Shown in pieces: positions 3,396-41,966 of a stretch of DNA of 64,000 bases. How positions within the stretch are numbered: position 1 is the stretch's first letter; each line of letters starts with the position of its first letter. A program made the translations under genes and the position numbers. Origin of the DNA: an uncultured Actinomycetota bacterium (GTDB lineage: Bacteria; Actinomycetota; Actinomycetes; Propionibacteriales; Nocardioidaceae); NCBI GenBank assembly GCA_963746185.1, contig CAVVAE010000003.1, positions 11,387-75,386 of the forward strand, read 5' to 3'. The notes under the pieces were generated by a model that saw only the letters and a program-made list of their open reading frames with translations, was not told the origin of the DNA and made no database searches.

Positions 3396-3454
3396 CTCGC
3401 CCTGGCCCAGTCCCGTCCTCGCTCAGACTTGCAGTGACTCACACGCGCCCTGAC

Positions 3455-4075
3455 TCAGACTCGCCCTCGCTCGGACTCTCGCGGCCGCGGTTCGTCTCCG
3501 CTGCCGGACGCTGGAACCGTGCTGGTCGGCACCCAGAACCGGAGCTTGTCCTCACGATGGTCCTCGTAAACGCCACCGGCAGCCTCGATCACCTTGCGCG
3601 AAGGTTCGTTGGTGTCGTCACAGGTCACCAGAACCGGGTCGATCCCCAGCTCGTGGCAAAACGGCAGCGCCGCGATCAGCATCGCGGTGGCGTTGCCCAT
3701 CCGGCGGGCAGACGGTCGTACGACGTACCCGATGTGACCGCCTAGCTCGAGCAGCCACGGCGTGAGCGAGTGTCTGATCGAGAGCCGACCGAGGTACTCC
3801 TCACCGTCGACCCACCAAAGCGTCGTGGACGGCACGATGCCTTCGGGCAGCCAGGTGGTCGTCAGCTCCAGCTCACGCAGCCGCCGACAAAACTCGGTGA
3901 ATGTGTCGAGGTCATGCAACGACTCGAACGGGAAGAACTCGCCCTCGAAGTCTCCGACTTGGCCGATGATCGTGAGCCCGGCGTAGCGCTCGTCCTCTTC
4001 GAGGAACCTGATCTCGCGTACGGCGTCGAGGAACGACCGCTGGTAACGCGGGTCGGGTCGCACAAGCTCGGCCAT
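3455..4075 (-). CDS. GNAT family N-acetyltransferase
   Basis: The acetyl-CoA binding block IGYVVRPSARRMGNATAML and the overall GNAT layout are present. The internal ATG at 4073-4075 (MAELVRPDPRYQRSF) is preferred, because the 127 aa upstream in the 333-aa ORF are low-complexity R/S/T-rich. Confidence 0.8.
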   Translation of the reverse strand: MAELVRPDPRYQRSFLDAVREIRFLEEDERYAGLTIIGQVGDFEGEFFPFESLHDLDTFTEFCRRLRELELTTTWLPEGIVPSTTLWWVDGEEYLGRLSIRHSLTPWLLELGGHIGYVVRPSARRMGNATAMLIAALPFCHELGIDPVLVTCDDTNEPSRKVIEAAGGVYEDHREDKLRFWVPTSTVPASGSGDEPRPRESERGRV

Positions 4076-4127: not shown

Positions 4128-5660
4128 TCAGGCTTCGACGTTGCCGATCCAGCGCAGCAGCAAGCGGGCGCCGAACCCGGTCGCACCCAGCGAGTACTCG
4201 AACGCGTCCTTCGGGGAGTCGCCAACACTCGCGATGTCGAGGTGCGCCCACGGAGTGGAGCCGGCGAAGTGCTGCAGGAACAGTGCCGCCGTGATCGACC
4301 CAGGCTGGCCGGCCATGTTGGTGGAGTCGGCGACCGCGTTATCGAGCAGCGACTCGTACTCGTCGCTGAGCGGCAGACGCCACAACGGTTCACCGGCGGC
4401 CGTCCCAGCAGCGTCCAGCTCAGCGGCGAGACTCTCGTCGTTCGCAAAGAGCGCACCGAGCGTCATCCCCAGCGCCACCTTCCCGGCGCCGGTCAGCGTG
4501 GCGATGTCGACCACTGCGCTGGCATCGATGTTGGCATCGGCATACGCGAGCGCATCGGCCAGCACGAGCCGTCCTTCTGCGTCGGTATTGCCGACTTCGC
4601 TCGTGCGCCCGCCGAAGTGCGTGACCACGTCACCAGGCCGCATCGCAGCGCCGCCGAAAGCGTTCTCCGCGGCCGCCACCAGCCCGGTCACCTTGACGCG
4701 CACTCCGAGATCTCGCAGCGCGCCCATCACCGCGATGACGACGCCAGCGCCGGTCATGTCCCGCTTCATGTTCATCATCGAGTCGCGCGGCTTGATCGAG
4801 ATTCCGCCGGAGTCGAACGTGATGCCCTTGCCGATGATCACTAGATGTGGCGTACGACGGTTGGACTTCTTCGGCTTGTAGTCCAGCCGAACGAACCGCG
4901 ACGGATAAGCCGACGCCGAACCTACGGCGATGATGCCGCCGAAGCCGTCGGCCGCCAATCGCTTGTCGTCCCACACCGTCACGTCGAGGTCGGCGGCCTT
5001 CGCAGCCTCACGCGCCCACTCCTCGAGCCGCTCGGGACTTTTCTCATTGGAGGGAGTCAGCGCGAAGGCACGCGCCCGCCAAGAGGCCTTCGCGCGGATC
5101 GTGGCGCGTTCGACCACGTCGGCACGGGACGGACCAGCCAGGTCGGTGAGTACGACGACGGGGGCGTGCGGTGGCTTGGGCTCTTCAGACTTGCGGTGAA
5201 ACCCGAAGGCGCCGAGCACGAGACCTTCGGCGAACGCTCCCAGCTGGTCATCGTCGGCGAGCGCGCCGATCGAGGCGGCAGCAGGTCCTCTGGTGCGCGC
5301 TGCCCGCGCGACTGCGGCGCCGGCCCGTCGGTAATCGCGCGAGCGCTCCTCGCCCAGTCCGACGAGCATGACCTGTTCAACGGCGCCGGCGTCAAACACC
5401 TCAAGCGAGACGACTTCGCCGGCTTCACCTTTGGCCTTCGCTCGGTCGAGCAGGGCGAACGCGTCGACGCCGAGGTTCGTCAGTGCCTGTTCGCCTCCGA
5501 GGCCGACGGTGTAGTTGTCGTCGGAGTTGGTGAACCCGATCGCGATCAGCTTCGCATCGGTGGAGGCGACGTGCGACGTACTCAGCTCGATGACGGTGGG
5601 CAGGGGCTGGCTGGCGTGGGTCGACACCCGGGAAACACTAGCGCTGCTGGTAGACGACAT
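4128..5660 (-). CDS. pepA: Leucyl aminopeptidase (M17 family)
   Basis: 510-aa ORF carrying the M17 signature NTDAEGRLVLADAL and the metal-ligand blocks VIIGKGITFDSGG and MKRDMTGAG. Confidence 0.95.
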   Translation of the reverse strand: MSSTSSASVSRVSTHASQPLPTVIELSTSHVASTDAKLIAIGFTNSDDNYTVGLGGEQALTNLGVDAFALLDRAKAKGEAGEVVSLEVFDAGAVEQVMLVGLGEERSRDYRRAGAAVARAARTRGPAAASIGALADDDQLGAFAEGLVLGAFGFHRKSEEPKPPHAPVVVLTDLAGPSRADVVERATIRAKASWRARAFALTPSNEKSPERLEEWAREAAKAADLDVTVWDDKRLAADGFGGIIAVGSASAYPSRFVRLDYKPKKSNRRTPHLVIIGKGITFDSGGISIKPRDSMMNMKRDMTGAGVVIAVMGALRDLGVRVKVTGLVAAAENAFGGAAMRPGDVVTHFGGRTSEVGNTDAEGRLVLADALAYADANIDASAVVDIATLTGAGKVALGMTLGALFANDESLAAELDAAGTAAGEPLWRLPLSDEYESLLDNAVADSTNMAGQPGSITAALFLQHFAGSTPWAHLDIASVGDSPKDAFEYSLGATGFGARLLLRWIGNVEA

Positions 5661-5722
5661 GGACCCCGGCGGTGCGTGTGCACCACCGGGGTCGGGGTCT
5701 GTGTGGGTGAGTGACGGGGCCG

Positions 5723-5890
5723 TCAGCTGGTCACCAGGCTCAGCGCCTTCTCGAGAGCCTTGGCTTCGTCAGCATTGAGCTCGACAACGAGCCGTCCGCC
5801 GCCCTCAAGCGGGACTCGCATCACCAAGCCGCGTCCCTCTTTCGTGACTTCAAGCGGACCGTCGCCCGTCCGCGGCTTCATCGCCGCCAT
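5723..5890 (-). CDS. Small conserved actinobacterial protein, DUF3117-like (55 aa)
   Basis: Hand translation gives MAAMKPRTGDGPLEVTKEGRGLVMRVPLEGGGRLVVELNADEAKALEKALSLVTS. This closely resembles the conserved actinobacterial family I recall as DUF3117. It is below the 60-aa cutoff of the supplied ORF track. Confidence 0.85.
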   Translation of the reverse strand: MAAMKPRTGDGPLEVTKEGRGLVMRVPLEGGGRLVVELNADEAKALEKALSLVTS

Positions 5891-5984: not shown

Positions 5985-6863
5985 GTGCCCGATACGTGCG
6001 GCAGACTGCTCGATGTGAATGCCCGGTCGGCCCTTTTTGACGTGTACGGCGACCACCTCCGGCCGCGAGGCGGAGCCGCTCCCGTGGCTGCGCTGGTCCG
6101 CATGCTCGCGCCCCTCGACATCGCCGCACCCGCTGTGCGGACCGCGATCTCCCGCATGGTGCAGCAGCAGTGGTTGGCAGCGGTCCGGCTCGATCAGGGG
6201 CCGGGCTACCGGCTCACCCCACGGGCCGAGCGCCGTCTCACCGACGCTGCCAACCGCATCTACCGCAGCGGCATCGCGCCGTGGGACCACCACTGGCACA
6301 TCCTCGTCATCGACCGCATGCCCAAGCGGGCATCGCGCGAGCGAGTACGCACCGGGCTCGGCTATCTCGGGTATGCCGTCTTGCGTGACGACACCTGGAT
6401 CAGCCCCCGGGCGTCCGGCGAGGTCGACGCCCTGTTGGAGCACGACGGGGTCCGGGCGCAACGGTTCTGGTCAGAGCACGACGGCGACGACGCCGCGCTC
6501 GCCGCCCAGGCCTGGGACCTCGACGGCCTCGGCCGTGCCTACGCCAGATGGCTCGACGAGGCCCGCGACCTGGTCCCAACCGTCCCGAGCGGCGATCCTC
6601 CCGAGACTTCCCGTGCTGCCGGGCCTCTCGACGGGCTCAGCGACCAGGACGCGTTCGTCGTACGCAGCCGACTGGTTCACGAGTGGCGCAAATTCCTGTT
6701 CCGCGACCCTGGACTGCCCCGAGAGCTGTTGCCGGATCAGTGGCCTGGCGACGATGCCGCCGCGTTCTTCGACACCGAGGCGGCTCGCCTGCTGCCAGCG
6801 GCCGGACGGTACGTTGATGCATGTCTGCGTCCGAACGGGACCACCCGAAACGGGTCTGCCTAG
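5985..6863 (+). CDS. PaaX family transcriptional regulator
   Basis: The N-terminal winged-helix block ALFDVYGDHLRPRGG...LVRMLAPLDIAAPAVRTAISRMV and the C-terminal block LVHEWRKFLFRDPGLPRELLP are typical of PaaX_N and PaaX_C. The start could instead be the GTG at 6015. Confidence 0.8.
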   Translation: MPDTCGRLLDVNARSALFDVYGDHLRPRGGAAPVAALVRMLAPLDIAAPAVRTAISRMVQQQWLAAVRLDQGPGYRLTPRAERRLTDAANRIYRSGIAPWDHHWHILVIDRMPKRASRERVRTGLGYLGYAVLRDDTWISPRASGEVDALLEHDGVRAQRFWSEHDGDDAALAAQAWDLDGLGRAYARWLDEARDLVPTVPSGDPPETSRAAGPLDGLSDQDAFVVRSRLVHEWRKFLFRDPGLPRELLPDQWPGDDAAAFFDTEAARLLPAAGRYVDACLRPNGTTRNGSA

Positions 6864-6908
6864 TCGACGCCCCGGCCGACGGAGTCCGATGCCGAGAGGG
6901 AGTGACCG

Positions 6909-7700
6909 ATGGGTGAACCGGTGAGGTACGACGTCGCCGACCACGTCGCGACGATCACGCTCGACCGCCCCGAGTCGATGAACAGCCTCGACACCGCGAC
7001 GAAGGACGCCCTCCTTGCCGCCATCGAGCGCGCCGGGTCCGATGACGAGGTCCGCTGCGTCGTCATCACCGGGACCGGCCGAGCATTCTGCGTCGGGCAG
7101 GATCTGCGCGAGCACATCACCAACATGACGACCCAGTCGCTCGAAGAGGTGTGGGCCACAGTCGACAAGCACTACTCGCCGATCGCGATGGGGATCGCGG
7201 GCATGCCGAAGCCGGTGATCGCGGCGATCAACGGCGTCGCGGCTGGCGCCGGACTATCGATCGCGATGGCCTGCGACCTGCGGATCAGCGCCGACTCAGC
7301 CGGTTTCAACACCGCCTTCACCGGAGTTGCTCTCTCGTGTGACACCGGCGCCTCGTGGACGCTGCCGCGGCTCGTCGGTCCGACCAAAGCGATGGAGCTC
7401 ATGCTCGTGCCGCGAACGCTCGACAGCCAGGAGGCCCTCGCACTCGGGCTGCTCAACCGCGTCGTACCGGCCGACGACCTGGCGAAGGAGGCCGCCACGC
7501 TGGCAGCCGAGTTGGCCGCCGGGCCGACGCTCGCCTACGCATCCGTGAAGCAGTCGGTCGCGTACGCCGCGATACATTCACTGGAGGACTCCCTGGCCTT
7601 CGAGAGTCAGATGATGGCTCGCACCGGCGGGTCCGAAGACCACCAGAATGCTGTGAAGTCGTTCGTCGCCAAGGAAAAGCCGACATTTGAAGGTCGATGA
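6909..7700 (+). CDS. Enoyl-CoA hydratase/isomerase (crotonase) family protein
   Basis: Crotonase motifs VVITGTGRAFCVGQDL and KPVIAAINGVAAGAGLSIAMACDLRI. Confidence 0.9.
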   Translation: MGEPVRYDVADHVATITLDRPESMNSLDTATKDALLAAIERAGSDDEVRCVVITGTGRAFCVGQDLREHITNMTTQSLEEVWATVDKHYSPIAMGIAGMPKPVIAAINGVAAGAGLSIAMACDLRISADSAGFNTAFTGVALSCDTGASWTLPRLVGPTKAMELMLVPRTLDSQEALALGLLNRVVPADDLAKEAATLAAELAAGPTLAYASVKQSVAYAAIHSLEDSLAFESQMMARTGGSEDHQNAVKSFVAKEKPTFEGR

Positions 7701-8701: not shown

Positions 8702-9517
8702 CTAGAAGTGGCCGCCGATGGCGCGGACGAGGCCACGAGCGGCTCGGCCCTGCAGGTAGTGCTGGCTCGGATGCGGGCCGAACTCGACGGTGACGCAAGC
8801 CCCGTCGTGCCGCCGGTTGAACCACTGCGTCAGGGTCCCGTGGCAGGCACCCGAGCAGTCGAACTCCCTGGTCGGCAGACGCAGATACCGCGCCAGCCGC
8901 TGAGCGAACGGCCGGTCCTTCGCGCCGTACACATCGATGCCGCGCAGCGGGGAGTGCATCGTCACGACGTAATCGGGATCGACCCGGTCGAGGAAGTGCT
9001 TGAGTCTGCGGGTCTCGGGCTCAGAGTTCGGCCGCGGCCCAGACTCGACCGTGCCGTTGAGCCGCTTCCATTTCACCGGGAAGTTGCGGTTGAGGTCGAC
9101 GCCATGCGCATTCTTGCGCTGATGACGCAGTACGCCGTCCACGTTGTCGCGCGGGATCGCCCACAGGTGCACGCCCTTGATCGGCCGACCGTGGATCAGC
9201 GTGCTGAGCACGATCGAGCCTTCGGTCTCATCGCCATGCATCGCCCCGATCGCGACGACAGTCTTGCTGGCGCCGCGACTGCCCAGTTCGAACGCGCGGA
9301 TCGGATGACGCTTGACCGAGTACCCGATGATGCGGCGGGAGATGACCGCGTCGGATCGAGCCTGCGCCATGGAGCCGGCCGCCGTCTGTATCGGGTCGGC
9401 CGTCTGCGCAGGGCGAGGCGATACGGCGTACAACGGTCCTGTCGCCGCTAGCCCACCGATGATCAGGGCGGTGAGCCCGACTCGGCCGAGCCGACGCAGA
9501 GCAGGTGGTGCGGTCAT
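8702..9517 (-). CDS. Secreted M14 zinc carboxypeptidase-like peptidase (murein peptide amidase / gamma-D-Glu-DAP peptidase type)
   Basis: Motifs IGAMHGDETEG, HGVDLNRNFP and EPETRRL...VVTMHSP, with a signal-like N-terminus RRLGRVGLTALIIGGLAA. The ATG at 9515-9517 overlaps the tag stop at 9514-9516 (ATGA). Confidence 0.8.
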   Translation of the reverse strand: MTAPPALRRLGRVGLTALIIGGLAATGPLYAVSPRPAQTADPIQTAAGSMAQARSDAVISRRIIGYSVKRHPIRAFELGSRGASKTVVAIGAMHGDETEGSIVLSTLIHGRPIKGVHLWAIPRDNVDGVLRHQRKNAHGVDLNRNFPVKWKRLNGTVESGPRPNSEPETRRLKHFLDRVDPDYVVTMHSPLRGIDVYGAKDRPFAQRLARYLRLPTREFDCSGACHGTLTQWFNRRHDGACVTVEFGPHPSQHYLQGRAARGLVRAIGGHF

Positions 9518-10095
9518 GTGCGGATCCTTTCCCGTGCCCAACAGTCAGCCAGGTGGTCGTTGACGAGTCCGGCGGCCTGCATCAGGGCGTATGCGGTGGT
9601 CGGCCCCACGAAGGTGAAGCCGCGACGTTTGAGTTCCTTGGCGAGTGCTTTCGACTCCGGCGTCTGGCTCGGTACGTCGGCGAGTGTCTTCGGCGCCGGC
9701 GCGGGCGGCGGGGCGAATGCCCAGATGAGCTCGGTGAGTGACTCGTCGAGGGCGGCGGCAGCGCGCGCATTGGTGAGAGCGGCGTCGATCTTGCCGCGGT
9801 GACGAACGATTCCCGCGTCCGCGAGCAACCTCTCCCGGTCGGTTTCGTCGAAGCCCGCCACTGTCGAGACATCGAAGTCCGCGAACGCAGCTCGGAAGTT
9901 GTCTCGCTTACGCAAGATCGTCAGCCACGACAGGCCCGACTGGAATCCCTCGAGGGTGAGCCGCTCGTAGAGCCCGTTGTCGTCACGAATCGGCTGGCCC
10001 CACTCCGCGTCGTGGTACGTGAGGTAGTCAGGCGTGGACAAGCCCCACGGGCATCGCAGTTCGCCGTCGGGGCCGAGCTGCGCATCGGACGTCAT
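9514..10095 (-). CDS. tag: DNA-3-methyladenine glycosylase I
   Basis: CPWGLSTPDYLTYHDAEWGQP...LTLEGFQSGLSWLTILRKRDNFR is the canonical Tag block. Confidence 0.95.
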   Translation of the reverse strand: MTSDAQLGPDGELRCPWGLSTPDYLTYHDAEWGQPIRDDNGLYERLTLEGFQSGLSWLTILRKRDNFRAAFADFDVSTVAGFDETDRERLLADAGIVRHRGKIDAALTNARAAAALDESLTELIWAFAPPPAPAPKTLADVPSQTPESKALAKELKRRGFTFVGPTTAYALMQAAGLVNDHLADCWARERIRT

Positions 10096-10538
10096 CGGAC
10101 GTCGTCGCTGGTGGAGGCTGGCTGCTCCTCCACAGGTGGCGGTGTCTGGTCTCGGTCCACGACCACCGGGCGTTCGTCGTCGACCGCGTCAGCCGGGGAA
10201 TCGACCGGCCGGTCAGCGACAGCGTCTGCGTCTGCGGCCGCGACCTCACCGTCTGTGGGCTGGTCGCCCTGATGGCTGGACTCCTCGTGCCGCTCCCGGG
10301 CCATCAGGTCGGCTCGCATCCGGTCGATCAGCGCATCGACCTCGTCCATCCGGTAGCCGCGCAGTCCTGTGTTGAGGCGGACGGCGTCCAGGTCATCGGA
10401 GGTCAGCGGCCGCCCGGTGGGGATCCCACGGTCAGCACGGTCTTCATAGACCTCGCCCATCGCGTCGTCACGCCCGGCGGCGAGGATGGCCACCACTCCG
10501 AGCACCACGACGAGAACGACGACCCACAACCAGATCAC
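10092..10538 (-). CDS. DivIVA-domain-containing membrane protein
   Basis: N-terminal TM segment (IWLWVVVLVVVLGVVAILAA) followed by the DivIVA N-domain signature LNTGLRGYRMDEVDALIDRM. Its stop overlaps the tag start. Confidence 0.75.
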   Translation of the reverse strand: MIWLWVVVLVVVLGVVAILAAGRDDAMGEVYEDRADRGIPTGRPLTSDDLDAVRLNTGLRGYRMDEVDALIDRMRADLMARERHEESSHQGDQPTDGEVAAADADAVADRPVDSPADAVDDERPVVVDRDQTPPPVEEQPASTSDDVR

Positions 10539-10594
10539 GAGACAGATCGTGCCACGCTTGGACCGAAACGGTGGTAATCGGGTGAGGAGCGGAC

Positions 10595-11458
10595 GTGTCG
10601 ATGGTGCTGGGACGACGTGACTTCGGCGATGCCGAGGTCGCCGTCATGGCGATCGTCAACCGCACGCCCGACTCGTTCTACGACAAGGGCGCGACCTACG
10701 CCGAAGGTGCCGCGCTCGACCGGGTGGCCGAGGTCGTCGCCGAGGGCGCTGACGTCGTCGACATCGGTGGCGTGAAGGCCGGCTACGGCGACGACGTCGA
10801 TGTGGCGGAGGAGCTACGCCGGACGGCGTCCTTCGTCGACGCGGTCAAAGCGTCGTACCCCGACCTGGTGATCAGCGTCGACACCTGGCGCGCCGAGGTC
10901 GCGCGGGAGTTGGCCCAGCGCGGCGCCGACATCCTCAACGACACCTGGGCGGGAGCCGATCCAGAGGTGGCGGAGGTGGCGGCCGAGTTCGGCGTCGGGC
11001 TCGTGTGCAGCCACACCGGCGGGCTCGGGCCACGCACCGACCCACACCGCGTCGAGTACGACGACGTGGTGGCCGACGTGATCACCACCGTGACGGGACT
11101 GGCGGAGCGGGCAGTGAGCCTGGGCGTCGACCGGCGGCACATCCTCGTCGACCCGACTCACGACTTCGGGAAGAACACCCGGCATTCGCTCGAGCTGACC
11201 CGACGTCTCGACGAACTGGTGGCCACCGGCTGGCCCGTGCTCGTCGCGCTGTCGAACAAGGACTTCGTTGGGGAGACACTCGATGTGTCGACCGAGTTGC
11301 GGCTCACCGGGACGCTGGCCGCCACCGCCATCTCGGCGTGGCACGGGGCACGGGTGTTCCGCGCGCACCAGGTGGCTGAGACGCGGCAGGTACTCGACAT
11401 GGTGGCCTCGATCGCCGGGCGACGCCCTCCAGCGCGAGCTACCCGCGGCCTCGCCTAG
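10595..11458 (+). CDS. folP: Dihydropteroate synthase
   Basis: MAIVNRTPDSFYDKG, DVVDIGG, ILNDTWAG and LVALSNKDF are pterin-binding DHPS motifs. Confidence 0.93.
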   Translation: MSMVLGRRDFGDAEVAVMAIVNRTPDSFYDKGATYAEGAALDRVAEVVAEGADVVDIGGVKAGYGDDVDVAEELRRTASFVDAVKASYPDLVISVDTWRAEVARELAQRGADILNDTWAGADPEVAEVAAEFGVGLVCSHTGGLGPRTDPHRVEYDDVVADVITTVTGLAERAVSLGVDRRHILVDPTHDFGKNTRHSLELTRRLDELVATGWPVLVALSNKDFVGETLDVSTELRLTGTLAATAISAWHGARVFRAHQVAETRQVLDMVASIAGRRPPARATRGLA

Positions 11459-11466
11459 CCGTTGAC

Positions 11467-11539
11467 CCGTCACTTGTGGTTGCGCGAGCCGTCACTTGTG
11501 GTTGCGCGAGCCGTCACCTGTGGTTGCGCGAGCCGTCAT
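11467..11539 (+). repeat. Tandem array of three 22-nt units plus a 7-nt partial unit (CCGTCACTTGTGGTTGCGCGAG)
   Basis: Units at 11467-11488 and 11489-11510 are identical. The unit at 11511-11532 has one substitution. The partial unit CCGTCAT (11533-11539) contains the ybaK stop codon (11536-11538). Confidence 0.95.
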
Positions 11540-12042
11540 CGGGCGATCGACGCTGTCGTCCCGTTCGTGACGCGAAGCAACTCACCGGGTGAAAGCTCGA
11601 CGTCGACGCCGCGTTTGCCAGCTGACACCAGGATCGTGTCGTACGACGTCGCGGACTCGTCGAGCACCACCGGCAACGGCGTACGTCCACCCAGTGGCGA
11701 GATGCCACCGACCACGGATCCGCTGACGCGTTCGGCAACTTCGGGAGGTGCCATCGCGACCTGCTTCTCGCCCAAGACCTGCGCCGCCGCCTTCAGGTCG
11801 AGCTGACCGGACACGGGTACGACGCAGAGCACATACCGCCGCCCCGCCTCGACCATCAGAGTCTTGAAGACACGCTCGGGTTCGACCCCGAGCGCTAGCG
11901 CTGCCTCGGCTCCATACCCGACGGCACTGCTGACGGCATCGCCGTGTTCATAGGTGCGCACGGTGTGCTCCACGTCGGCCTCGACGAGGCGAGTGAGCCC
12001 GCGGCGTAGCCGCTGACCGCTTCTTCTTCGCCACCTAGCCAT
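11536..12042 (-). CDS. ybaK: Cys-tRNA(Pro)/Cys-tRNA(Cys) deacylase, YbaK/EbsC family
   Basis: The blocks ERVFKTLMVEA, VLCVVPVSGQLDLKAAA, GGISPLG and VVLDES...DTILVSAGKRG are YbaK-like. The internal ATG at 12040-12042 is preferred, because the ORF upstream of it is translation of the repeat array. Confidence 0.85.
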   Translation of the reverse strand: MARWRRRSGQRLRRGLTRLVEADVEHTVRTYEHGDAVSSAVGYGAEAALALGVEPERVFKTLMVEAGRRYVLCVVPVSGQLDLKAAAQVLGEKQVAMAPPEVAERVSGSVVGGISPLGGRTPLPVVLDESATSYDTILVSAGKRGVDVELSPGELLRVTNGTTASIAR

Positions 12043-12071
12043 CCTGGCACTGCGCGCGTCATCACTGCCGG

Positions 12072-12138
12072 GTCGCGCAACCACAAATGACGGGTCGCGC
12101 AACCACAAACTGACGGGTCGCGCAACCACAACTGACGG
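12072..12138 (-). repeat. Tandem array of three 22/23-nt units, reverse complement of the 11467-11539 array
   Basis: GTCGCGCAACCACAAATGACGG (12072-12093), GTCGCGCAACCACAAACTGACGG (12094-12116) and GTCGCGCAACCACAACTGACGG (12117-12138). The reverse complement of the first matches the left-array unit at 20 of 22 positions. Confidence 0.95.
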
Positions 12139-12145
12139 GTGAAGT

Positions 12146-12949
12146 TTATTCGGAGCGGTGGGGTTCGACGTGAGGTTGGCCGCCCGGGCCTATCGTCGCT
12201 TCGCGTTCGTGCCGCGCTGCCACCATGATCGCGACCGCTTCGTCGATGTCGTCAGTCAGCCGCAGCAGGTCGAGGTCCTTCTCGCTCACCTTGCCGCCCT
12301 CGAGGACGACGGCACGGATCCATTCAACGAGCCCGCCCCAGTACTTCGTACCGAGCAACACGATCGGGAACGACGTCACCTTCTGGGTCTGCACAAGCGT
12401 GACGGCCTCGAAGATTTCGTCGAACGTGCCGAACCCACCGGGCAGGGCGATGAAGCCTTGCGCGTACTTCACGAACATCGTCTTGCGAGCGAAGAAGTAG
12501 CGGAAGTTGATGCCGATGTTGACCCACTCGTTGATGCCAGACTCGAAGGGCAGCTCGATCCCGAGCCCGACCGACAGCCCACCTGACTGCGAGGCGCCGC
12601 GGTTCGCGGCCTCCATCGCTCCGGGTCCACCTCCGGTGATGACCGCGAATCCCGAGCCCACCAAGGCGGCACCGAGTGCGATCGCCTGTTCGTAGTCAGC
12701 ATCGCCGGGCTTGCTCCGTGCGGAACCGAAGACCGAGATGGCCGGACCGAGCTCGGCCAGCGCGCCGAATCCCTCGACGAACTCCGCCTGGATCCGCAGC
12801 ACCCGCCAGGGATCGGTGTGCACCCAGTCGGTCGGTCCGCGCGAGTCGAGCAAGCGTTGGTCGGTCGTCGAGCTCTGCACCTGCTCACGACGCATGACAA
12901 CAGGGCCACGCCGCTGCTCCCGTTGCCTCGATGGCTGCTGATCAGTCAT
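12146..12949 (-). CDS. LOG family protein (TIGR00730-type nucleotide 5'-monophosphate nucleosidase)
   Basis: Motifs VITGGGPGAMEAANRGA and ALPGGFGTFDEIFEAVTLVQT (PGGxGTxxE). Confidence 0.9.
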   Translation of the reverse strand: MTDQQPSRQREQRRGPVVMRREQVQSSTTDQRLLDSRGPTDWVHTDPWRVLRIQAEFVEGFGALAELGPAISVFGSARSKPGDADYEQAIALGAALVGSGFAVITGGGPGAMEAANRGASQSGGLSVGLGIELPFESGINEWVNIGINFRYFFARKTMFVKYAQGFIALPGGFGTFDEIFEAVTLVQTQKVTSFPIVLLGTKYWGGLVEWIRAVVLEGGKVSEKDLDLLRLTDDIDEAVAIMVAARHEREATIGPGGQPHVEPHRSE

Positions 12950-13034
12950 GCGTCCAACCTATCGGGAGGAACGACCCGGAACTCCCGTGTGCACATATCT
13001 GCACCGACTGTCACCGTGGCGCTGGTCCGTTCGT

Positions 13035-14111
13035 TCAACCTGACGAGGAGAGCCAAGCCGTCATTTGCTCGAGACAGGTGTGCAAGTGGGCCAGCGGCAC
13101 GTGCTCTCCCTGGGTGTGCGCCAGCTCAGGATTTCCTGGTCCGAAGTTGACCGCCGGGATACCCATCGCGCTGAACCGCGCCACATCTGTCCAGCCGAAC
13201 TTCGGGTTCGCCGCACCACCCACGACCGCGAGGAAGGCTGCGGCGGCGGGCAGCGTCAGACCCGGCAGTGCTCCGGGCGCGGAGTCGCGCACCACCACGT
13301 CGAACCCCTCGAACACTTCCCGCAGATGCGCTTCGGCCTCGTCGACTCCACGGTCGGGTGCGAACCGGTGGTTGATCGTCACCGTGCACGAGTCTGGCAA
13401 GACGTTGCCCGCGACCCCTCCACTGATGCCGACGGCGTTGAGTCCCTCGTGGTACTTGAGGCCGTCGATCACCGGACGCCGAGGCTCGTACGACGTGAGA
13501 CGAGCCAGCACCTCCCCGGCGGCGTGGATCGCGTTGACCCCGTTCCACCAGCGGGCGGAGTGTGCGCGAACGCCGCGCGTCGTGACATCGATCCGCATCG
13601 TGCCTTGGCAGCCCGCCTCGATGACAGCGTTGGACGGTTCCATCACCACAGCGAAGTCACCAGCCAGCATCTCCTCGCGCACAGCAGCGATCAACGTGAG
13701 TCCGTTGCGCTCCGCCTCGACCTCCTCCGCTTCGTAGAACACGTAGGTCAGGTCTCGGTTGGGCTGGTCCAGCGTCGCGGCCAACTTCAGCGCCACCGCG
13801 ACACCGCCCTTCATGTCGCACGACCCAAGTCCGTGCAGCGCGTCACCCTCGACCCGAGCCGGCAGGTTGTCGTTGACTGGGACGGTGTCGACATGACCAG
13901 CCACCACGACACGCTCAGGACGTCCGAGCGTCGTACGCGCGACCAACGAGTTCTGATGGCGCCACAGCTCCAACCACGGCACGTCGGCCAGCACGCTTTC
14001 GATCTCGTCACTGATGGTCTTCTCGTTGCCGCTGACGGACTCGATGTCGACCAGTGCGGCAGTCAGATCGACGATGTCGGCATGCGGATCCAGAGACGTC
14101 ATGGCCGCCAT
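13035..14111 (-). CDS. dapE: Succinyl-diaminopimelate desuccinylase
   Basis: M20 peptidase motifs VVVAGHVDTVP and GLGSCDMKGG, adjacent to dapD. The start was chosen at the ATG at 14109-14111 (MAAMTSLD); 14102 is also possible. Confidence 0.88.
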   Translation of the reverse strand: MAAMTSLDPHADIVDLTAALVDIESVSGNEKTISDEIESVLADVPWLELWRHQNSLVARTTLGRPERVVVAGHVDTVPVNDNLPARVEGDALHGLGSCDMKGGVAVALKLAATLDQPNRDLTYVFYEAEEVEAERNGLTLIAAVREEMLAGDFAVVMEPSNAVIEAGCQGTMRIDVTTRGVRAHSARWWNGVNAIHAAGEVLARLTSYEPRRPVIDGLKYHEGLNAVGISGGVAGNVLPDSCTVTINHRFAPDRGVDEAEAHLREVFEGFDVVVRDSAPGALPGLTLPAAAAFLAVVGGAANPKFGWTDVARFSAMGIPAVNFGPGNPELAHTQGEHVPLAHLHTCLEQMTAWLSSSG

Positions 14112-14136
14112 TGTGTCGAAGCCAGCCGCGGCCCCG

Positions 14137-14826
14137 TCACGCGTTCGACGTAAAGGCGCAGAACTCGTTGCCTTCGGGGTCGGCCATGATGTGCCAGCGA
14201 TCCTCCGGAGTCGGTTCGCGCAGCACGGTCGCACCGGCCGAGACGAGGTCGTCCACCGAGTCGACCGTGACGTCCCAGTGGATGCGGTTTTTTACCGTCT
14301 TCGGTTCGGGCACGGGCACGAAGTCCCACCCGTTGTAGGGCAGACCAGGCATGTCCTCGAGCCACCACCAGTCCTTGTCGGCCCGACCGTCGAGCTTCGC
14401 CCCCAGCACCTCAGCCCACCAACTCGCGACAGGCTTGGGATCGACGCAGTCGATCACCAGCTCGTGCAGCCGGTACGCCGGCAGGTCGTCAGGCGCGCGC
14501 ACGAACGCACAGAACTCACCGCCCTCAGGGTCGGCCATCACGGTCCAGGGACGGCCGTACTCCTCGGCAGGTTCGAGCACCTGGGCTCCCAGCTGGACGA
14601 GCTCGTCGATCGACCCGGCATGCACGTCGATATGCACCCGATGCTTCACGCTCTGAGCTTCGGGTACGACGTTCATCCAGACCTGTTGCTCGGGTTTGTC
14701 ACCGACAAGCGCGCCAGCCTCACCGTCAGGCTCGAAGCGCAGCCCGAGCGCGGCCGCCCAGAAGCGGCCGAGTTGCTCGGAGTCACTGGAGTCGATGCAG
14801 AGGTCCTTGTAATGCGCGATCGCCAT
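14137..14826 (-). CDS. VOC/glyoxalase-like two-domain protein
   Basis: Two internally similar halves (HRVHIDVHAGSIDELV...ADPEGGEFCAF and NRIHWDVTVDSVDDLV...ADPEGNEFCAF), typical of duplicated glyoxalase-like folds. Confidence 0.7.
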   Translation of the reverse strand: MAIAHYKDLCIDSSDSEQLGRFWAAALGLRFEPDGEAGALVGDKPEQQVWMNVVPEAQSVKHRVHIDVHAGSIDELVQLGAQVLEPAEEYGRPWTVMADPEGGEFCAFVRAPDDLPAYRLHELVIDCVDPKPVASWWAEVLGAKLDGRADKDWWWLEDMPGLPYNGWDFVPVPEPKTVKNRIHWDVTVDSVDDLVSAGATVLREPTPEDRWHIMADPEGNEFCAFTSNA

Positions 14827-41786: not shown

Positions 41787-41817
41787 GGCCTCCTCCTTCT
41801 TGAATCAAGCGGGAAAA

Positions 41818-41886
41818 CCAACACGTGTTGGCTTTCGTTGAAAGCCAACATACGTTGACTTCTGTCGAATGTCAACACTCGTTGAC
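41818..41886. promoter_or_regulatory. Three CAAC-N4-GTTG inverted repeats in the MFS/TetR divergent promoter region (candidate TetR operators)
   Basis: CCAACACGTGTTGG (41818-31, perfect palindrome), GCCAACATACGTTGAC (41844-59) and GTCAACACTCGTTGAC (41871-86). Confidence 0.6.
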
Positions 41887-41966
41887 TTTTACTTGGCCGC
41901 CTGACACAGTGATCCGCACCCGCCCCGCATCGCAGCCGCACCAACACCCGCAGAGGAGAGGAGCCA

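Follow-up and report, generated by a model that had tools for sequence, protein, structure and literature searches.

In the stretch of DNA analysed here (the window: 64,000 nucleotides of contig CAVVAE010000003.1, assembly GCA_963746185.1, from an uncultured member of the Nocardioidaceae), the gene ybaK, coding for a Cys-tRNA(Pro) deacylase, lies between two inverted arrays of a 22-nt tandem repeat. The explanation that we favour, with confidence that is about evenly balanced, is that these arrays are two members of a dispersed 22-bp family and not a device for ybaK, and that the units of the family would act as phased protein sites. This reading draws on the structure of the two arrays, on their persistence at the same locus in related genomes, on arrays of like kind at unrelated loci, and on the comparison of two orthologous genes in which an array stays with the gene outside it. 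Searches of the literature by sequence string and by keyword returned no description of such arrays, the strings matching only unrelated papers on maize and human, and the family of dispersed intergenic repeat arrays in uncultured Nocardioidaceae is apparently undescribed.

The arrays flanking ybaK

All position numbers are window coordinates. Array A (11459..11538, plus strand) opens with an 8-nt lead-in, CCGTTGAC, an ancestral-type spacer, which is followed by three full units of the form CCGTCAC(T/C)TGTGGTTGCGCGAG and a partial CCGTCA. The repeated part, 11467-11538, holds 3.3 units of CCGTCACTTGTGGTTGCGCGAG, and Tandem Repeats Finder reported the same interval with a period of 22, 3.3 copies and 98% matches. 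Array B (12072..12145, minus strand) has a lead-in of 7 nt, ACTTCAC, and then three units CCGTCA(G/GT/T)TTGTGGTTGCGCGAC. These reverse-complement units occupy 12072-12138, are 22, 23 and 22 nt long, and read on the minus strand as CCGTCAGTTGTGGTTGCGCGAC, CCGTCAGTTTGTGGTTGCGCGAC and CCGTCATTTGTGGTTGCGCGAC; a degenerate partial unit extends to about 12064, and Tandem Repeats Finder placed the array at 12064-12140 with a period of 22, 3.4 copies, 92% matches and 5% indels. The outer and inner units of array B each have 20/22 identity to the array A unit, and the middle unit carries one additional T. A search for the 22-mer with up to three mismatches gave five matches in 64 kb, all of them in the two arrays, and none in 100 shuffles; the middle unit of array B was missed because it is 23 nt long. 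The 13-nt core TGTGGTTGCGCGA recovered all six full units with no other match in the window, and no further array copies were found in the 64 kb by a weight-matrix scan and a phased-pair scan. The inverted arms that the two arrays offer one another are at most 43 nt long and 91% complementary.

Each array adjoins the end of a gene. The dihydropteroate synthase gene folP (folP2-like, with a Pterin_bind domain; 10595-11458, plus strand) terminates in a TAG codon at 11456-11458, and array A, which its 3' end abuts, begins 1 nt beyond in the folP sense. On the other side the 3' end of a LOG-family gene (Lysine_decarbox/SLOG; 12146-12949, minus strand) abuts array B, the lead-in of which comes directly after the LOG stop codon TAA (the complement of 12146-12148), while the units begin seven bases past this stop and read in the sense of both LOG and ybaK. 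LOG is co-directional with ybaK, and folP is convergent with both. The sole gene between the arrays is ybaK itself (11536-12042, minus strand; tRNA_edit/YbaK domain). The partial fourth unit of array A supplies its stop codon, as TCA at 11536-11538 reads TGA on the complementary strand. Its ATG at 12042 is 29-30 nt from the end of array B. A first-pass annotation of the window had described the inverted 22-nt arrays around ybaK, had taken the partial last unit to provide the ybaK stop codon, and had seen the 22-mer nowhere else in the 64 kb. All three statements were borne out, by Tandem Repeats Finder together with the mismatch and core searches, by the TCA inside CCGTCA, and by the weight-matrix and phased-pair scans, respectively; the gene names ybaK, folP and LOG also held on domain checks.

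Eight relatives with ybaK between LOG and folP were sampled, all of them uncultured Nocardioidaceae (L016, L017, L018=L019, L020, L037, L039 and P0004), and seven of these were read as DNA, P0004 having none. All eight share the gene order dapE-LOG-ybaK, followed by the convergent folP, a hypothetical gene and tag. A downstream array of 3-8 units of 22 nt, situated between the ybaK stop and the folP stop, was present in 7/7 relatives read as DNA, and an upstream array between LOG and ybaK in 5/7. The upstream and downstream arrays hold 2 and 3 units in L016, 2.5 and 7 in L018, 2 and 5 in L020, and at least 4.5 and 8 in L039; L017 and L037 have none upstream and three units downstream. In L037 an upstream remnant, TCGTTGAG-CCGTGA, persists, and its GTG is now the ybaK start. 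When the units of the relatives are read from CCG to TGG, the upstream array on the LOG side and the downstream array on the folP side both point toward ybaK.

At four-fold degenerate sites the window and its relatives are 40-55% identical, where saturation corresponds to 35%, and 12-27% of such sites are invariant across the relative set. In the downstream arrays of six genomes 11/22 positions are invariant, compared to 47/206 four-fold sites (Fisher p=0.008). The invariant positions form the blocks CCG (1-3), TT-TGG (8-13) and GA (20-21), and they include four T and one A, in a genome with 19% A+T at four-fold sites. Since array positions are invariant where four-fold sites are near saturation, these alignments argue that the arrays of the ybaK locus are old, have been passed on vertically, vary in copy number and are under constraint in their sequence. 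It was also found that lineage-specific variants are common to both arrays of one genome, as with the GCGCGA spacer of the window, CGTTGAA/CCTTGAG in L016 and the CCGCGGG core in L039. The mean likeness of arrays was 18.4/22 within a genome and 16.1-16.4 between genomes, a difference reached by 6/120 permutations, and the shared variants may be taken as a modest sign of concerted evolution.

Only 14-22 nt separate LOG from ybaK in L017 and L037, suggesting that ybaK is probably co-transcribed with LOG; it is therefore unlikely that the sense-oriented array is a full terminator. The neighbourhood of ybaK differs in other genomes. In Knoellia the gene lies between an MFS transporter gene and map, and the closest YbaK of all (83%), that of L015, is encoded next to a DUF222/HNH gene, without arrays. 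In L041, a Nocardioidaceae metagenome-assembled genome (MAG) with a FolP of 79% identity, folP and LOG are convergent and have between them a ZIP transporter, BlaI, M48 peptidase, BacA and PepN, while ybaK and arrays are both missing; a single degenerate unit-like stretch follows the folP stop. By these differing arrangements the folP-LOG interval is a variable slot, in which the presence of ybaK is specific to this clade. A possible array remnant beside the relocated ybaK of L015 gave a signal too weak to call.

Arrays of the family at unrelated loci

Among 185,579 GTDB species genomes the exact 22-mer with the window spacer occurred in no arrays. It gave 14 single hits in unrelated phyla, a number which, by a rough estimate, is about the chance level. 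When the JGI metagenomes were scanned with a degenerate pattern requiring about 2.5 phased units, 16 contigs matched, 12 of which were high-GC contigs with true 22-nt arrays, representing approximately ten independent loci. Examples are GATCCGCGGGTTGTGGTTGCGC, which equals the window unit at 17/22 positions, and GATCCGTGAGTTCTGGTCCGCC. Contig L024, one of the 12, carries the gene for an IlvA with 99% identity to that of a Nocardioidaceae MAG. None of the genes for YbaK, FolP, LOG, Tag and DapE was found on the 12 array-bearing contigs. No array of the family was found in the viral contigs of IMG/VR or in the plasmids of PLSDB, where the only similarity was a 14-nt coincidence in a mirror-repeat region of the Streptomyces globisporus plasmid pTFSG2. 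That region (L043, 35.1-36.3 kb) is a mirror-symmetric block of about 1.1 kb, near HTH and DUF2637 genes, in which tandem arrays of 34-, 23- and 36-nt units stand on either side of a centre of about 230 bp; its 23-nt unit shares GTTGCGCGAGCCGT with the window unit (E=5e-3) and is probably unrelated, the architecture being analogous.

The arrays behave alike from locus to locus. All are extragenic, and the unit is 22 bp long (21-23) in every one. In 14/17 cases a co-oriented gene ends just ahead of the array, whose outer end lies 0-40 nt past its stop codon (p=0.006), and nearby array pairs are inward-facing in 7/7 cases (p=0.008); both figures count loci judged independent by eye, and the metagenome set is small and pattern-selected. 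The genes that precede the arrays have unrelated housekeeping roles; they encode IlvA, M64 peptidase, peptidase C26, SURF1 and PmbA/TldD, together with products that were identified by inspection as FAD oxidoreductase-like, aminotransferase-like, glycosyltransferase-like and PhzF-like. Two pairs (L033 and L023) are directly adjacent between convergent genes and enclose no gene. The other pairs enclose a methyltransferase (L036), ADH and GNAT (L029), an EamA transporter (L034), ybaK (the window) and, in L027, a low-GC REase-like gene whose G+C content at third codon positions (GC3) is 0.72, compared to 0.87 in its neighbour. Gene-proximal units are intact and distal units decayed. The number of units differs between loci (5 vs 7 in L021 and L035; 4 vs 3 in L022 and L028), and a variant unit, GATCCGCCCCGTCTGACCCGAC, forms arrays of like behaviour.

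Which gene an array belongs to could be judged from the DISCRIMINATING comparison, that of the PmbA/TldD genes of L036 and L033, whose products are orthologues with 83% amino acid identity. In both contigs the PmbA/TldD stop is followed directly by CGCCGATCCG and a sense-oriented 22-nt array, of four units in L036 and of two units of a variant in L033. Beyond this array the contigs differ, as L036 goes on with a methyltransferase gene that is convergent and has a second array bracketing it, and L033 with a co-directional M64 peptidase gene. Since the array is kept in both while the next gene differs, the comparison argues that an array stays with the 3' end of the outside gene and not with the enclosed one. 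At the ybaK locus, likewise, the folP-side array was kept in all relatives read as DNA, also where the LOG-side array is gone. Together with the PmbA/TldD comparison and the remnant after folP in L041, this persistence suggests that ybaK is bracketed because the genes on either side, folP and LOG, are convergent and have a 3' array apiece.

Molecular mode, alternatives and known systems

The favoured reading can be put as follows. Arrays of the family would be placed between genes, usually beginning 0-40 nt from a stop codon and in the sense of that gene; their copy number would drift in the range 0-8, through slippage or unequal exchange, and the gene-proximal units would stay intact while the distal ones decay. 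The convergent folP and LOG would each carry such a 3' array, and the slot between them would hold ybaK in this clade, the bracket around ybaK being a by-product and the whole arrangement vertically inherited. Each unit has two invariant blocks, GA-n-CCG and TTGTGG, with centres 10-12 bp apart and repeated every 22 bp, on which a sequence-specific, probably oligomerising protein could line up along one face of the DNA. This is the geometry to be expected of a protein that reads two successive major grooves and stacks head to tail. The partner may be a factor of the host that acts where transcription units end, or else a domesticated enzyme specific to an element. For the former there would be precedent in the REP/BIME elements, which are reported to bind gyrase and IHF and to stabilise mRNA; for the latter, in the RAYT transposases that act on REPINs and in the transposases of multi-site transposon ends.

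A role of the units through RNA structure is unlikely. Single arrays folded no better than shuffled sequence on either strand (z from +1.45 to -2.4), with the exception of the sense strand of the L024 array (z -5.7), a fold that relies on G-U pairs. Rfam gave no hits at E<=1 in window positions 10000-13500 and none on the arrays of seven loci, and a scan of 11200-12400, which covered consensus types only, found neither an intrinsic terminator (GC-rich hairpin with T-run) nor a sigma-70 promoter (-35/-10 hexamers). Three functions for the single unit were considered and set aside. A hairpin in each unit (UGG/CCG) was rejected, as units compared by hand had no covariation across subfamilies. Rho-binding (rut) sites were dropped because the signal is inconsistent, the window-type sense strand being G-rich and type-2 units C-rich. 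The provision of stop codons in three frames did not hold as a purpose either, since TGA occurs in units of the CCGTGAG type and is absent from the CCGTCAC and CCGCGGG types. Phased protein-binding sites, one of the four possibilities raised by the first-pass annotation, fit the arrays best, since the invariant blocks are spaced by about one helical turn, the period stays at 22 bp throughout and no RNA structure was found; the invariance of positions 2-3, 8-9, 11-13 and 20-21 of the unit also supports this reading, in which binding itself is a prediction.

Several observations weigh against the reading of a dispersed 3'-end family. The conservation of the core in the JGI loci was partly imposed by the search pattern, although GA at positions 20-21 was free to vary in that pattern and is conserved all the same, and the second arrays on these contigs, which lie outside pattern selection, also fit the family. 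The rule of the 3' end is not absolute, as the right-hand arrays of L029 and L034 and the array of L028 face the 5' end of a gene. The family is also sparse in what was searched, with one locus in 64 kb and 12 matching contigs in the whole JGI collection, for which the pattern was narrow. The variants shared by both ybaK arrays call for either exchange from one array to the other or selection by an agent that both have in common. Finally, five independent loci have unrelated genes placed exactly between inward-facing arrays, and the enclosed genes tend to have a lower GC3 than their neighbours, both of which fit a cassette or a capture of genes as well.

The first of these alternatives, raised in a simpler form by the first-pass annotation, takes the arrays for terminal inverted repeats, with several sites each, that belong to a non-autonomous element of the kind of a mobile insertion cassette or a MITE (miniature inverted-repeat transposable element), whose ends would be bound by a transposase encoded elsewhere and which would have delivered ybaK into the folP-LOG interval in the clade ancestor, where it has since been fixed. 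We consider this unlikely. All seven array pairs are indeed inward-facing, inverted terminal arms (at most 43 nt, 91% complementary) are present, the outermost units are the best conserved while inner ones decay, and the enclosed content varies freely (none, ybaK, methyltransferase, ADH and GNAT, the low-GC REase-like gene, EamA transporter). The stretch of DNA unlike that of L041 and Knoellia is also bounded exactly by the arrays, and the two right-hand arrays facing a 5' end would be a matter of indifference to an element. Yet a target-site duplication was seen at no outer boundary inspected by eye (window, L036 and L033), although old insertions could lose one; none of the loci examined has a transposase or recombinase, and no copies occur in IMG/VR or PLSDB. 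The comparison of empty sites is equivocal in its turn, as L041 lacks ybaK and arrays but has five other genes there and is not a clean empty site. Moreover, the downstream array persists without a partner in L017 and L037, the array stays with PmbA/TldD when the enclosed gene is absent, the arrays of L029 are interleaved, L036 has an extra antisense unit pair before the enclosed gene, and the arrangement is vertically stable across genomes with saturated synonymous sites. Of the cassette as first proposed, then, the clade-specific locus and four other loci of like build stand, and against it are the absence of target duplications and of a transposase at these loci, and an array that follows the outside gene. 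The annotation had also held that the cassette and inversion ideas would fall if the 22-mer were a REP-like element scattered through hundreds of intergenic regions; dispersal over unrelated intergenic regions was found, at about ten loci, which goes part of the way to such a refutation.

A related account starts from 3' arrays and supposes that an inward-facing pair makes a long palindrome, fragile and recombinogenic, at which foreign genes such as ybaK are preferentially captured. Empty adjacent pairs between convergent genes (L033, L023) would be its starting state, and synteny breaks exactly at the inner array ends, both between L036 and L033 and between the window clade and L041. In L036 the methyltransferase gene has two antisense units ahead of it and four behind, which looks like an insertion of the gene into the array; target duplications are missing, as end-joining predicts, and enclosed genes have a somewhat lower GC3. 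There are only five cases, however, and a neutral account would suffice, because the spaces between convergent genes are the least harmful for any insertion; breakage has no direct evidence, and the ybaK insertion is ancient, so that its junctions are no longer informative. We hold this account to be rather improbable. A bolder proposal, in which the inward arrays would mark off an as yet undescribed platform for gene capture or for cassettes in the Nocardioidaceae, with a dedicated protein binding the phased units and joining the arrays and the slot favouring the insertion or exchange of single genes (ybaK, methyltransferase, ADH and GNAT, the endonuclease-like gene, EamA transporter), is likewise unlikely in our judgement.

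Two further possibilities concern ybaK itself. In a transcript of dapE-LOG-ybaK, or in read-through from folP, the arrays might pair into a duplex of about 66 bp enclosing the ybaK open reading frame (ORF), which would serve as a processing or stabilising stem, for example as a substrate of RNase III, like the stems around rRNAs. The duplex that the first-pass annotation had suggested is predicted thermodynamically: the minimum free energy and centroid folds of 11455-12150 (minus strand) pair the arrays end to end, at -376.9 kcal/mol against -315.9 +/- 7.4 in shuffles (z = -8.3). Such a fold is trivial for any inverted repeat. The tendency of two arrays of one genome toward shared variants would agree with pairing, and the adjacent inverted pairs of L033 and L023 would form local hairpins; L017 and L037, however, retain three downstream units without any upstream arm, the copy numbers of the arms are unequal elsewhere (2.5 vs 7; 2 vs 5), solo arrays are common, and the fixed differences between the arms (position 7, G vs C, and position 22) give G-G or C-C mismatches, and no wobble, in either transcript. 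Because the upstream arm is missing in two relatives and the mismatches are not wobble pairs, an RNA duplex around ybaK is possible but dispensable, and as an explanation of the arrays it is very unlikely. The remaining suggestion of the annotation, an invertible segment in which recombination between the arrays flips ybaK as a switch, was not borne out and is to be regarded as largely refuted, its chances being minimal. It is true that ybaK is flanked by inverted repeats, about 66 bp long and about 90% identical, and concerted evolution hints at occasional exchange between arrays, but ybaK is co-directional with LOG in all eight genomes, neither the syntenic neighbourhood nor the neighbouring gene tables hold a recombinase gene or domain, the longest perfect match between the arms is below 20 bp, and a flipped ybaK would lose its upstream operon context.

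Like the REP and BIME elements of enterobacteria and the REPINs of Pseudomonas, the arrays are short extragenic repeats, apparently dispersed over unrelated intergenic sites (about ten loci on Nocardioidaceae-type contigs, a single one in the 64 kb), at 3' ends and between convergent genes, in single, inverted-pair and clustered forms, and they persist for long at orthologous sites. REPs are defined as imperfect palindromes with a length of 20-40 nt and the ability to fold into a stem-loop, often tagged GTAG or CGTC (PMC3733652), and head-to-tail clusters of REP-like units have been described for the SMAG elements of Stenotrophomonas (PMC2613905). The 22-mer, in contrast, has no internal inverted repeat, its arrays fold no better than shuffles, and they are strictly head to tail with a constant 22-bp period. 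Multi-site transposon ends are known from Tn7 (TnsB sites of 22 bp), Mu (MuA sites), IS21 and Tn552/Tn5053, and from the cassettes and MITEs derived from such elements. The arrays resemble them in having directly repeated units of about 22 bp at each of two inverted ends, with unrelated passengers or none, and in the best conservation of the outermost unit, but differ in that the loci examined lack a target duplication, a conserved terminal dinucleotide and a cognate transposase, and in that the units adjoin one another, in numbers from 0 to 8, and the array follows the outside gene. The MIRU-VNTR loci of mycobacteria are also actinobacterial intergenic tandem repeats of variable copy number, often within or at the ends of operons; MIRU units are about 46-100 bp long, often in multiples of 3 and with small overlapping ORFs, whereas the unit described here, at 22 bp, cannot be divided by 3, and its arrays form oriented pairs that face inward. 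The lack of a palindrome, the wrong unit length, and the lack of target duplications and of a transposase thus place the family outside REPs, MIRUs and cassettes, respectively.

The nearest actinobacterial precedent for short direct-repeat arrays bound by an oligomeric protein is found in the clt loci of Streptomyces conjugative plasmids, in which direct repeats beside the 3' end of a gene are bound by the FtsK-like TraB hexamer (PMC4447253, PMC3583192). Plasmid iterons are alike in this respect. The clt loci consist of 7-9-bp motifs on plasmids, by tra genes, whereas the arrays described here are chromosomal, lie by housekeeping genes and have 22-bp units. Array B contains GACCCGTC, which resembles what we take to be the TraB motif of pSVH1, GACCCGGA; this motif was not confirmed in the literature, and the resemblance is an unverified lead only.

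Neighbouring genes, other repeats and implications

Outside the folP-LOG interval the window carries a dapE-like gene (13035-14234, minus strand) and tag (9514-10095, minus strand). The 5' part of ybaK (11985-12042, minus strand) is peculiar, in that the first 14 or so codons are in a frame unlike that of all relatives. The relatives start at GTG..KKKRSAGTPGLTRLVE; in the window one additional base (ACGCCGCGGGCTCAC vs ACGCCG-GGACTCAC) closes the GTG frame, and the ORF (MARWRRRSGQRLRRG...) is regained by way of an ATG at 12042, which lies in a different frame. Either the frameshift is real and has been compensated, or the change is an indel of the assembly. An exact-sequence look-up of the window YbaK, in versions of 168 and 197 aa, returned no record. 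Its closest homologues, at 68-83% identity, come from metagenome assemblies, one cluster being named "Nocardioidaceae bacterium", the name also borne by the closest FolP homologue (94% identity). The GC3 of ybaK is 0.75, compared to 0.82 and 0.88 in its neighbours. Several of the relatives appear to derive from long-read assemblies with indels. In L016 folP (6574-7440) is split by a frameshift, with two tblastn pieces meeting at 7004-7011, and has lost its normal stop codon, so that the ORF runs into the 22-nt array; L017 has many breaks like this one, which suggests an indel-prone long-read assembly.

Other repeats were seen near the same genes. Between dapE and LOG a 23-nt repeat of about 2.6 copies and 75-80% matches is present in L018 (4988-5049) and L020 (4770-4827), the first copy of which is the dapE stop region (GGCTGACC...), and in L039 the folP stop region is similarly duplicated (CTCGCCTGACC); neither has a counterpart in the window. 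In L020 a 12-nt coding repeat, CGGCGACGGAAG, of 11.4 copies (5709-5845) lengthens the LOG-family protein to 341 aa, compared to 267 aa in the window. In L041 arrays with units of 21-23 nt and of other sequence follow stop codons; one of period 22, CCGACGCAAAGTTGCCCTCGAG, with 3.2 copies (6928-6998), starts right at the PaaX stop codon, and one of period 21 (7057-7113) lies between this stop and the next gene, hinting that arrays of about 22 nt after stop codons may be a wider habit of these genomes. Upstream of the relocated ybaK of L015, at a distance of 1.4 kb, stands a 27-nt tandem repeat, CCGCAACCACAAGCGGGGTTGGTTTTAA (4524-4640, 4.3 copies). The 11-mer GCAACCACAAG is common to it and to the window unit, and the repeat may be a chance likeness or a distant relative of the family.

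Two of the array-bearing contigs have further features, namely a glycine riboswitch aptamer in L033 (RF00504, 63 bits; 10508-10614, minus strand) and, in L034, an apparently perfect hairpin of about 20 bp (GATACGTGACGGATGCACCAC ... GTGGTGCATCCGTCACGTA; 2349-2402), which stands directly after the type-2 array and before an HpcH/HpaI-family gene. Elsewhere in the window a 27-nt repeat of 2.9 copies (41813-41889), with palindromic sites such as CCAACACGTGTTGG, occupies the divergent promoter region between a 520-aa ORF (minus strand) and a 196-aa ORF (plus strand). It was rejected as a relative of the 22-mer and looks like repeated operator sites of a small regulator. An intergenic 16-nt repeat, CCTCACTCAGACTCGC, of 3.9 copies and 69% matches (3417-3478) lies beside a duplicated GCCTTGCAGACT motif.

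For ybaK itself the outcome is deflationary, as nothing suggests a special regulatory device and the readings specific to this gene are largely deflated. The family of arrays is, on the other hand, coherent, conserved and experimentally tractable. If the reading is true, it would add a dispersed repeat system to the Nocardioidaceae, a family for which we found none described, with an architecture unlike that of REP, BOX or MIRU elements: a non-palindromic 22-bp unit, placed head to tail, in fixed orientation to the upstream gene and in inward-facing pairs. The invariant blocks, kept despite saturated synonymous sites, point to a trans-acting partner that is conserved as well. Through their variable copy number the arrays would offer ready-made typing loci, and as marks of the edges of variable gene slots they may serve as landmarks for the gain of single genes between convergent genes in high-GC actinobacteria.

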